DNA of 64,000 nt from Bacteroidales bacterium (lineage in GTDB: Bacteria; Bacteroidota; Bacteroidia; Bacteroidales; GCA-2748055), in assembly GCA_030673645.1 (NCBI GenBank), contig DAOVIO010000004.1:4641-68640 (forward strand), given 5' to 3'. Positions within the stretch are counted from its first letter, which is position 1. Each line of letters starts with the position of its first letter. The position numbers and the translations under genes are program-made. The notes beneath the pieces are model-generated. The model saw only the letters and a program-made list of their open reading frames with translations. It was not told the origin of the DNA and ran no database searches. Shown here piece after piece: positions 26,095 through 27,404 of this stretch.

Positions 26095-26631
26095 TATTTT
26101 TAAAACTTGCTGCTAGTTTATATGTACTACAAAATCGTACATAAAATCCTCTGGAAAGTTATTATGTTTTGAAGAGTCGTACAATAATCTATTCTAATAT
26201 AGGAATAATATTCCACATCATCATTCCTGATCGTACAGATAATACTAGAACGAGCACAAAGAAACTACAATAACATCCCATATATTACACATAATCAAAC
26301 GCTTACAAAACAACAGCCTCAAATCTTTGATTTAAAGCCATTTACAGCCTCATAGAGACACTATCTCCACATGAGCAATAAGGTTTGTATAAATAGACAT
26401 CAAAAACACCTTATAAGGCTTTGAGACAACTAGTTAGGAAATAGAGTGAAATAGAAGGAAGTGGGCTTATAGCTAAGTCAATCAATAAGTAGGAAAGTAG
26501 AATTTGTTTCGGTAATGTTTCGGTAGCATAAAACAAAAATGCTCCTAAGCCTTATGTTTAAAGGCATTTATTTATTATCTTGCTCCTTAGTCCCGATGTA
26601 CATCGGGAGAACCTTCGACCTACGGACTGCT

Positions 26632-26919
26632 CTAACCAACTTTAAATCTTGCAATAATCTGAGAAATAGAATTCCGCTTTATAATAGTCTCAATGTAATT
26701 CCGACTTTTCTGCTTTTTAATATGTGACTCAACTTTCCTTGCTAATCCTCGATCATCACCTATTTCAAAAGAACAGCTCAGTACCCAAGGTCTGAAACGA
26801 GATGTAAATGAATTTTCAGAAAGATCATTATGTTCAATTAAACGTCTTTTCAGATCATTCGTATAACCTACATAATACTTATCATAACTTTCCGAATAAA
26901 GAATATATACCCAAAACAT
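26632..26919 (-). CDS. Small stand-alone GIY-YIG nuclease
   Basis: WVYILYS...YYVGYTNDLKRRLIEHN, FT.RFRPW, E..IKKQKSR. Confidence 0.92.
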   Translation of the reverse strand: MFWVYILYSESYDKYYVGYTNDLKRRLIEHNDLSENSFTSRFRPWVLSCSFEIGDDRGLARKVESHIKKQKSRNYIETIIKRNSISQIIARFKVG

Positions 26920-27203
26920 ATTAGGAATAATTTAATGCTACAAAAAAGCAAAATCAAATTTATGGAGCTAAATTGCTCCTCTGTCCCGGGAACTCTGGAG
27001 AACCTTCGACATACGAACCGCTCTAACCAACCCCAAATAAAAAACCCCAGTAAAATACATTTGTGGGGTTTTATTTGCTCCTTAGTCCCGATGTACATCG
27101 GGAGAACCTTCGACCTACGGATTAATCCCGATGTACATCGGGACCGCTCTAACCAACCCCAAACAAAAAACCCCAGCAAAATACATTTGTGGGGTTTTAT
27201 TTG

Positions 27204-27277
27204 CTCCTCAGGAAGGACTCGAACCTTCGACCTACGGATTAACAGTCCGCCGCTCTAACCAACTGAGCTACTGAGGA
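27204..27277 (-). tRNA. tRNA-Asn (GTT)
   Basis: TCCTCAGTAGCTCAGTTGGTTAGAGCGGCGGACTGTTAATCCGTAGGTCGAAGGTTCGAGTCCTTCCTGAGGAG folds as a cloverleaf with anticodon GTT. Confidence 0.97.
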
Positions 27278-27404
27278 AAATATGTTAATGAACTTCCTTT
27301 TTATTCTGTTGGATTCGAGATACGGATTAATCCCGATGTACATCGGGACCGCTCTAACCAACTGAGCTACTGAGGAAAATTTTATTACTTTTTCAAAAGC
27401 TCCG

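Follow-up and report, generated by a model that had tools for sequence, protein, structure and literature searches.

A putative selfish cassette of a minimal GIY-YIG nuclease gene and hairpin-armed tRNA copies in Bacteroidales tRNA genes

The accessible text of earlier reports already contains GIY-YIG homing genes beside transfer RNA (tRNA) genes in T4-like phages, small GIY-YIG open reading frames (ORFs) in ribosomal RNA (rRNA) genes of the candidate phyla radiation (CPR), and tRNA fragments as scars of integration. SegB of phages T4 and T6 is, as far as that text goes, a free-standing GIY-YIG homing endonuclease that cleaves the DNA of tRNA genes (PMC2330249); lying among tRNA genes, it drives recombination-dependent tandem amplification of the tRNA-segB unit, with microhomology of the tRNA 5' end to the 3' end of the gene (PMC13096335). 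The CPR rRNA genes have insertions that carry small GIY-YIG ORFs and no intron, and the available part of that report places its cases outside spread by homing (PMC11270868). Prokaryotic SLX1-like proteins appear in the accessible sections of Dunin-Horkawicz et al. (PMC1564403) as a minimal stand-alone form, with one fusion to a tRNA methyltransferase; that account has the branch passed on mostly by vertical descent and gives it no assigned role beyond a hint at RNA metabolism, SLX1 itself is a structure-selective nuclease, and the authors raise the question of whether further members are molecular parasites. Here I analyse a 64,000-nucleotide stretch of a Bacteroidales draft genome (the window; genome G000), in which a tRNA-Asn gene stands within an array of partial tRNA copies, copies of an 18-bp palindrome and a small GIY-YIG gene. 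This layout of tRNA, nuclease gene and hairpin looks like an undescribed selfish cassette in the tRNA genes of Bacteroidales.

The locus resembles SegB, as the accessible text presents it, in having a GIY-YIG nuclease gene among tRNA genes and tandem units of tRNA plus nuclease. Unlike SegB, the element is chromosomal, its product is 95 aa long with no DNA-binding domain, and it matches none of the phage records searched; the available accounts of SegB loci mention no second tRNA copy with a hairpin in place of an arm. It shares with free-standing homing genes of the Seg/I-TevI type a position beside a conserved target gene and a patchy distribution (the ORF is missing in G001, a genome of the same genus), but it differs from them in lacking the DNA-binding domain and any sequence membership at family level (TIGR01453, 20 bits against a cut-off of 56). 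With UPF0213 and SLX1-like proteins it has in common its best solved relatives by profile (1zg2, 1ywl) and a minimal single-domain build, and the accessible description of that branch (PMC1564403) contains neither linkage to tRNA genes nor hairpin-edited tRNA copies nor tandem arrays. The CPR insertions are alike in that small GIY-YIG ORFs lie in or beside conserved RNA genes, the CPR loci found here adjoining tRNA, RNase P RNA and rRNA-like sequence; neither target duplication nor hairpin replacement is described in the available text on those insertions (PMC11270868). A search of full-text literature, with supplements outside its scope, yielded no description of minimal SLX1-like ORFs tied to a hairpin-armed tRNA duplication, of tandem arrays of such ORF-tRNA units, or of one 18-bp hairpin common to spare tRNA copies and three RNase P helices.

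The order of the array, in tRNA direction, is unit A, a spacer, the intact tRNA, a terminator, unit C, a copy of that terminator, unit D, the ORF, unit E and a putative terminator. Unit boundaries are read on the tRNA strand, which is the minus strand, and coordinates are window positions:

27349-27376, minus: 5' part of unit A, tRNA-Asn nt 1-28, identical to 27250-27277, with the ancestral upstream (promoter) region retained
27331-27348, no strand: palindrome copy 4, TCCCGATGTACATCGGGA, substituting cggactg of the anticodon arm of unit A
27321-27330, minus: ttaatccgta, the remaining anticodon loop and 3' stem of unit A
27278-27320, minus: 43-nt spacer from unit A to the intact tRNA, not in G001
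27203-27277, minus: intact tRNA-Asn(GTT)
27165-27198, minus: terminator-like hairpin 1 (aaaacccc...ggggtttttt)
27076-27157, minus: unit C, from the D-loop (gttggttagagc) to the tRNA 3' end, both arms edited
27126-27143: palindrome copy 3, in the anticodon arm of unit C
27086-27103: palindrome copy 2, in the T arm of unit C
27039-27072, minus: terminator-like hairpin 2, a duplicate of hairpin 1
26974-27032, minus: unit D, a degenerate tRNA-Asn copy from the D-loop on, its hairpin decayed
26632-26919, minus: GIY-YIG ORF, 95 aa plus stop (Pfam PF01541)
26581-26640, minus: unit E, a tRNA-Asn copy from the D-loop on, starting within the last ORF codons
26591-26608: palindrome copy 1, substituting the 3' half of the T arm of unit E
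26535-26569, minus: putative terminator 3' of unit E, a weak hairpin that is also kept in G001

The first-pass annotation of this DNA had described one intact tRNA-Asn amid four partial copies, and this is borne out by ARAGORN, whose sole tRNA call in the window is the tRNA-Asn(GTT) at 27203-27277 on the minus strand, by Rfam (RF00005 at 27204-27277, 74.7 bits) and by alignment of units A, C, D and E. It was equally right that the terminator hairpin is duplicated with the units and that the GIY-YIG gene (a PF01541 match) lies between two of them, its final codons and stop (aaa gtt ggt TAG agc) being the D-loop and D-stem sequence of the tRNA. Unit A, which extends over 27321-27376, keeps an upstream sequence that is the same as that directly 5' of the intact tRNA-Asn of G001. 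The further claim that the palindrome swaps for two fixed tRNA segments stands as to the four exact copies of the 18-mer in tRNA arms (starting at 26591, 27086, 27126 and 27331) and fails in its details at the T-arm junction, where the palindrome takes the place of gagtccttc and is accompanied by one G-to-A change in the acceptor strand, and in unit E, whose anticodon arm is mostly deleted. Unit D has TCCCGGGAACTCTGGA where a palindrome would stand. A fifth window site, at 45007, has two mismatches; the chance expectation for the 18-mer in the window is 0.01, and none of 100 shuffles reaches five matches. The repeat units of the array measure from 127 bp to about 0.45 kb.

The product of the ORF is a single GIY-YIG domain (PF01541, E 5.1e-15, 56 bits against a cut-off of 22.6, residues 1-73) of 95 aa, in which Pfam finds no accessory domain and whose last residues are encoded by tRNA sequence. 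A profile of 20 homologues, the window ORF and 19 ORFs of relatives (A1), matches the solved structures of UPF0213 1zg2 (E 4.9e-13), 1ywl (2.3e-11) and SLX1 7cq2 (2.4e-6), and by profile the protein belongs to the stand-alone SLX1-like/UPF0213 branch of the GIY-YIG superfamily. Across the 20 homologues Y5, S9, Y16, G18, R26, H30, W45 and K68 are invariant, and E64 is conserved in at least 90%. I take the catalytic roles to fall to the Tyr of GIY, the Tyr and Gly of YIG, Arg, His and Glu. The residues of the GIY and YIG motifs plus R, H and E are kept and the nearest solved relatives include SLX1, so that the protein is predicted from its sequence to be what looks like an active nuclease. Its prediction as a homodimer scores 0.28 against a mark of 0.42 and weighs neither way, and the database names of its homologues are generic ('GIY-YIG nuclease family protein', 'putative endonuclease').

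G000 has two tRNA-type GIY-YIG homologues, the window ORF and an ORF on contig C163 (45% identity). The latter has the 3' end of a tRNA-Leu and a terminator on its 5' side and, directly 3', a tRNA-Leu copy with three AGCT-variant palindromes; both tRNA-type GIY-YIG genes of the genome thus adjoin palindrome-bearing pseudo-tRNAs, as the first-pass annotation led one to expect. Two more paralogues, of another subfamily, have neither a tRNA nor a palindrome nearby. One paralogue of this non-tRNA subfamily lies just left of the window (C187:4361-4675, L008), where a TGA ends its frame and is followed by further family-like sequence.

The same layout recurs in many other genomes. I surveyed 109 loci, 30 from 41 related genomes (of the same genus, family and order) and 79 from a scan of one genome per species, and found 122 complete matches to the ORF, carried mainly by Bacteroidales. 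The shared layout is an intact tRNA, then an SLX1/UPF0213-type ORF, which runs into a second tRNA copy with a hairpin for its anticodon or T arm. An intact tRNA lies on the same strand at most 150 nt upstream of 38 of the 122 ORF matches; where enough sequence follows the stop, 18 of 36 have a downstream copy of the last 33 nt of the upstream tRNA (score at least 17, against a maximum of 12 in 2000 null trials), and in 13 of the 18 a perfect hairpin (stem of 6 bp or more) stands just 5' of that copy. Fourteen ORFs terminate at or within a tRNA call. Among cultured bacteria, Geofilum rhodophaeum HF401 (L076) and Roseimarinus sediminis DSM 28824 (L083) carry related cassettes. The tRNA species involved include Asn, Lys, Met, Phe, Leu, Val, Ala, Asp, Thr and Arg, and the stop codon of the ORF is typically the TAG of the D-stem TAGAGC or the TGA of the Phe anticodon loop. 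In the spare copies the T arm and acceptor strand match the tRNA of each host, and the terminator is sometimes copied as well.

The hairpin is under constraint in at least one family. In the tRNA-Lys(UUU) family the 17-nt anticodon arm CATCCCTTTTAAGGATG is swapped exactly between A26 and G44 for TTCCGCTTTGCGGAA, and among its 27 distinct sequences four of the six stem pairs show compensatory changes, with 98.8% of cells pairing; none of 500 shuffles reaches this covariation, and slid controls fall far below it too. Hairpins that replace an arm in the tRNA-Met family share their TCCCGA...TCGGGA stem with the window palindrome and vary in the loop. The closest homologue of the window protein (L010; 50-51% identity in two alignments) belongs to another family of bacteria, lies 3' of a tRNA-Asn and has TCCCGAAGTTTCGGGA at the T-arm position equivalent to that of unit E. 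A match to the palindrome family occurs in nine of the 30 loci of relatives, each about 1.8-3.3 kb long. ORF and spare copy are often repeated together in tandem, with at least five ORF copies at a period of 347 bp in L099, four in L079 and two to three in several other loci. A catalytic-core tree of 61 loci, one sequence per locus, requires 21 changes of tRNA type against 32-37 in 300 label shuffles; since kin share tRNA labels, the tree demonstrates fidelity of ORF clades to tRNA type and not the origin of that fidelity. In CPR genomes, homologous ORFs stop 2-18 nt 5' of intact tRNAs, before RNase P RNA, or in rRNA-like sequence. Among the CPR loci L118, L124 and L132, GIY-YIG ORFs end directly 5' of RNase P RNA (ggaggaaagtccgaac) or enter 16S-like sequence.

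A comparison with G001, of the kind that the first-pass annotation had called for, finds the hairpin without the ORF. The tRNA-Asn of G001, beside the same kinase gene, is clean, with neither partial copies nor an ORF. At a distance of 32 kb, beside the homologue of the left flank of the window, G001 has 15 nt of a tRNA-Asn 3' end, a terminator, 10 nt and a tRNA-Asn copy; the 10 nt are all that stands at the place homologous to the ORF. The copy starts at TAGAGCGC, carries imperfect hairpins in the anticodon arm (tcccgagacatcggga) and in the T arm (tcccgaatcctcggga), and has the acceptor strand of G001's own tRNA-Asn. A hairpin-edited tRNA-Asn copy is thus found in both genomes and so predates their split, whereas the ORF is present in one only; the hairpin keeps the same T-arm position in L010 and in G001, and the ORF is patchy. 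All four arm hairpins of the array are the same perfect 18-mer, which points to homogenisation within G000.

The reading that I favour, and to which I would give an even chance, takes the locus for a homing-type selfish cassette resident in tRNA genes, here amplified in tandem and decayed in part, for which the tRNA gene is both target and homology and the hairpin a conserved component. It starts from the anatomy, the conserved layout, the patchiness, the amplification, the stem covariation and the fidelity of ORF clades to tRNA type, and from there would add cleavage, homing and a role for the hairpin. Such a cassette would consist of a minimal stand-alone GIY-YIG ORF of the SLX1/UPF0213 branch without a DNA-binding domain, an intact upstream tRNA copy, a 5'-truncated second copy of the same tRNA that the ORF enters, and a short perfect GC-rich hairpin in place of the anticodon or T arm of this second copy. 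With the intact copy kept upstream, the host would lose nothing. The nuclease would break or nick the DNA of tRNA genes, and recombination repair, using the two tRNA copies as portable homology arms, would copy the ORF into tRNA genes that lack it. Unequal exchange after such breaks may amplify the units in tandem, by analogy with phage SegB as the accessible text of PMC13096335 presents it. The hairpin might prevent re-cutting of the spare copy, or else recombination with the real tRNA that would delete the ORF. TCCCGATGTACATCGGGA would be the G000 version of the cassette hairpin, whose family would also have multiplied into intergenic DNA and RNase P RNA. The first-pass annotation had likewise thought of a tRNA-targeting selfish or defensive element, and nuclease gene, tRNA duplication and arm-replacing hairpin do recur jointly in many genomes and at many tRNA species. 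What is not supported in the form given is its picture of nuclease and palindrome spreading together: of the 83 near-exact palindrome copies in G000, most have no GIY-YIG gene anywhere near, pseudo-tRNA arrays with the palindrome occur in G013 with no GIY-YIG match at E <= 1e-5, and G001 has a hairpin-edited pseudo-tRNA-Asn with no ORF.

The distant copies and the G013 arrays also weigh against the cassette as such, and they are joined by several further points. Edited partial tRNA copies, some with a promoter, stand without an ORF at the Arg-CCG, Ser-GCT, Ser-GGA and Cys genes of G000. The intact upstream tRNA retains any target that lies inside the tRNA, so that immunity by hairpin would be incomplete. 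A separate DNA-binding domain was not found in the protein, which consists of the catalytic domain only, and the known site-specific GIY-YIG homing enzymes have one. The sole NCBIfam match is the one to the group I intron endonuclease model TIGR01453, far below its cut-off, and 50,697 phage records contain no homologue at E <= 1e-3. Finally, a resident gene inherited vertically would explain the clustering of tRNA types on the tree equally well.

A genome search for TCCCGAT-N4-ATCGGGA, suggested in the first-pass annotation, gives 68 matches in G000 and none for the reversed control pattern; centres of AGCT (34 copies) and GTAC (21) dominate, and the next palindromes of the same build number 8 and 6. 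With up to one mismatch there are 83 sites, 80 of them intergenic, that is, outside long ORFs. The palindrome lies at most 320 bp from six of the 27 tRNA genes, against a mean of 0.87 for random intergenic sites, and none of 2000 samples reaches six. Given this enrichment and the two tRNA-type GIY-YIG genes described above, the lack of association that would have refuted the first-pass annotation is not seen in this genome. Across the 41 related genomes the pattern occurs in 22 and a GIY-YIG match in 26, with both in 16, which by my own tally is a weak overlap; the correlation becomes strong only after post hoc removal of the non-tRNA subfamily and is not relied upon.

These figures also feed the main rival, a possible though doubtful one, which holds that two unrelated things meet here: autonomous mini-palindromes, like repetitive extragenic palindromic (REP) sequences or miniature inverted-repeat transposable elements (MITEs), would collect in spare tRNA copies, and the ORF would be a resident gene that rides on tRNA promoters independently of the hairpins. 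Like REP sequences and their associated tyrosine transposases (RAYTs), the palindrome is short, mostly intergenic, present in tens of copies and varied from genome to genome, AATT and AGCT loops predominating among the matches listed for G033 where AGCT and GTAC do so in G000. Direct repeats of at least 4 bp surround 24 of the 83 copies and 0.95% of control sites, yet many of them lie in repeated contexts and are therefore not independent insertions. Copies that stand apart from the ORF, in RNase P RNA, in group II introns (which hold three of the four G005 copies), in the G013 arrays and in the edited partial copies at tRNA-Arg, tRNA-Ser and tRNA-Cys, speak for autonomy as well. Against it, a hairpin occupies the equivalent cassette position in many genomes, including some with four to five palindromes of which one or two adjoin the ORF; a palindrome-family match in nine of 30 loci compares with a chance roughly estimated at well below 0.05 per locus; and the Lys-family hairpin is conserved with compensatory changes. 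A cognate transposase was not found either: the five matches to the Y1-transposase family PF01797 in G000 lie on contigs without the palindrome, those on C116 and C253 between other hairpins. Unlike REP sequences, moreover, the palindrome shows no constant flanking tetranucleotide, and its copies stand in for the arms of copied tRNAs and for RNase P RNA hairpins.

Two candidate rules for its placement were rejected. Insertion at the tips of existing hairpins was dropped as a general rule, because a stem extension of 3 bp or more into the flanks is seen at one of 83 sites against 2.1% of controls, and a bulge-tolerant score gives 4.8% against 3.6%. A preference for gene 3' ends, as in REP stabilisers, was not seen, with 63 3' ends and 59 5' ends facing a palindrome on crude ORF calls. 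BLAST clustering of the flanks lumped 50 sites into a single component and yielded no usable families.

Several observations on the surroundings of the palindrome and of the spare copies stand on their own. The Y1-transposase (IS200/RAYT-like) genes at C116:160-1160 and C253:570-1160 of G000 lie between other palindromes (CTTGGGACGATGTCCCAAG, TCAGGCTGAAAGCCTGA, CCGTGGGTGAAACCCACGG), and CCCAAGG...CCTTGGG hairpins similar to those at the Y1-transposase genes adjoin several copies of the 18-mer. At C30:9100-9274 a tandem repeat with a 66-bp period, running off the contig end, has the palindrome or a one-mismatch copy in each unit. AGCT-variant copies sit in simple repeats (CACCAGCAC-type hexamers, TTACGGGG heptamers) at C220:895-945, C227, C183, C42:24381, C105:1015-1300 and C56, surrounded by direct repeats of 5-7 bp (agcac, tcccatc) and in some cases in 31-bp tandem units. 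In the window, positions 44990-45210, downstream of a gene, contain about eight different short hairpins with TTGGGAGG before each and a period of about 24-27 nt; one of them (45007-45024) is the two-mismatch relative of the palindrome, and Rfam has no match to this array at E <= 0.01. A second mini-insert of spare tRNA copies consists of units of about 49 nt, CCGAGG...GAGCTCATGAG...CGAATAA, often in tandem, placed exactly between GGTTCGAA and the TCC of the T-loop (in the D-loop in G013), each unit ending in a near-copy of its T-loop target. They occur at C40:7100-7700, C179:15950-16130 and C191:200-330 of G000 (L003-L005), in L091, L105 and G013 (L162), and in metagenome-assembled genomes of Rikenellaceae.

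The palindrome also stands in RNase P RNA. In the G000 gene (C177:3471-3807, L001; 206.7 bits) the GTAC-variant 18-mer forms the P3 and the P12 hairpin, and a one-mismatch copy forms the hairpin just 5' of the P4 3' strand. None of 25 relatives with parsable RNase P genes has the palindrome in P3 or in the hairpin before the P4 3' strand. P12 could be read in 13 relatives, with a TCCCGA...TCGGGA-type stem in G037, G005 and G033 and TCCCGG...CCGGGA in G018, so that the likeness in P12 is old.

A rather improbable alternative is an RNA-protein system, in which the hairpin-bearing tRNA-like transcript would act with the nuclease as a guide, as an antitoxin-like or decoy RNA, or as a stabiliser of the mRNA 3' end. 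As a guide, the RNA would pair with tRNA-gene DNA and leave the anticodon arm of the target looped out for a structure-selective nuclease; as an antitoxin or decoy, it would belong to loci that recall type III toxin-antitoxin systems, with RNA repeat arrays before the nuclease gene. Stem covariation is a sign of structural constraint, and spare copies keep a T arm and acceptor strand identical to the host tRNA, with no decay; repeat units do lie upstream of the window ORF, the protein has no domain of its own for sequence specificity, and the nearest of its characterised relatives cleave DNA with branches and loops, according to the accessible text of PMC1564403. However, a DNA cruciform or a palindromic protein-binding site predicts the covariation equally, and in most spare copies the 5' strands of acceptor and D-stem are missing, which keeps them from folding like a tRNA. 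No Rfam family matches, and GIY-YIG enzymes are not known to be linked to guide RNAs, which also counts against such a system.

A more speculative form of homing, which I rate as having a small chance of being right, would be guided by structure or RNA. The SLX1-like nuclease of about 90 residues would target by nucleic-acid structure, and the tRNA copy with its substituted hairpin, in the form of RNA or of extruded DNA, would pair with or mimic the tRNA gene and present a looped arm; microhomology-templated repair triggered by the nuclease would copy the hairpin onto hairpins with similar stems. If so, such copying would explain the identical 18-mer in three RNase P RNA hairpins of G000.

That the partial copies are attachment-site scars of integrase-type tRNA islands, with the ORF as a passenger, is unlikely and has a very slim chance of being correct. 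Partial tRNA genes are commonly such scars, and an intact tRNA beside a partial direct copy of its 3' part recalls attL and attR fragments, both by the accessible text of PMC9897764. In G001 the intact tRNA-Asn and the pseudo-copy locus lie 32 kb apart on one contig (C101; 25073-25153 and 57535-57921; L043, L044), but the stretch between them was rejected as an integrase island, as it contains no match to the tyrosine integrase family PF00589: G001 has four such matches, none of them on C101, the window itself not having been searched for integrases. The separation may go back to a rearrangement or to another type of island. The units of the window, 127 bp to less than 0.5 kb, are too small for an integrase and are repeated in tandem together with their terminator. 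Neither conserved, covarying hairpins in place of an arm nor ORFs that read into the copies in dozens of genomes would be expected of such scars.

Read support for the array comes from short-read contigs of four cold seep metagenome runs of one study, which may include the source sample and are thus not fully independent. Contigs with near-identical sequence in the four runs cover all junctions of the array piecewise, among them a 524-nt contig from palindrome 1 through the ORF to palindrome 2 (26580-27104) and another over 27250-27377; a contig of run X2 joins 27034 to 27162, omitting 127 nt that correspond approximately to unit C and its terminator, a missing unit that also fits tandem amplification, and no single contig of the four runs crosses the entire array. 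Stretches of the array without cover in one run or another are given no weight. That the array is an artefact of assembling a short-read metagenome bin is unlikely in the extreme: the draft genome, 94.5% complete, is split into 269 contigs and has just 27 tRNA genes, no contig spans the array, one lacks a unit and many homologues are on very short contigs, but each junction is covered by unitigs of the four runs, and many other assemblies show this architecture as well, isolates among them and with some of the contigs several hundred kb to megabases in length.

If the locus is indeed a homing-type selfish cassette, the tRNA genes of Bacteroidales, and apparently also of CPR, would host a widespread class of very small selfish cassettes that keep the host's tRNA intact through duplication, the spare copy being marked by a conserved hairpin. 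The genome-wide spread of one 18-bp hairpin, even to an essential ribozyme gene, is apart from this a case of concerted evolution among dispersed hairpins. The cassettes would explain the repeat-rich, assembly-breaking tRNA loci seen here, in a draft with 27 tRNA genes, as well as the source of many 'tRNA-like' calls and calls of undetermined anticodon. They would also give a function to at least one branch of the uncharacterised stand-alone GIY-YIG proteins, and raise the question of how a bare catalytic domain locates a tRNA gene.

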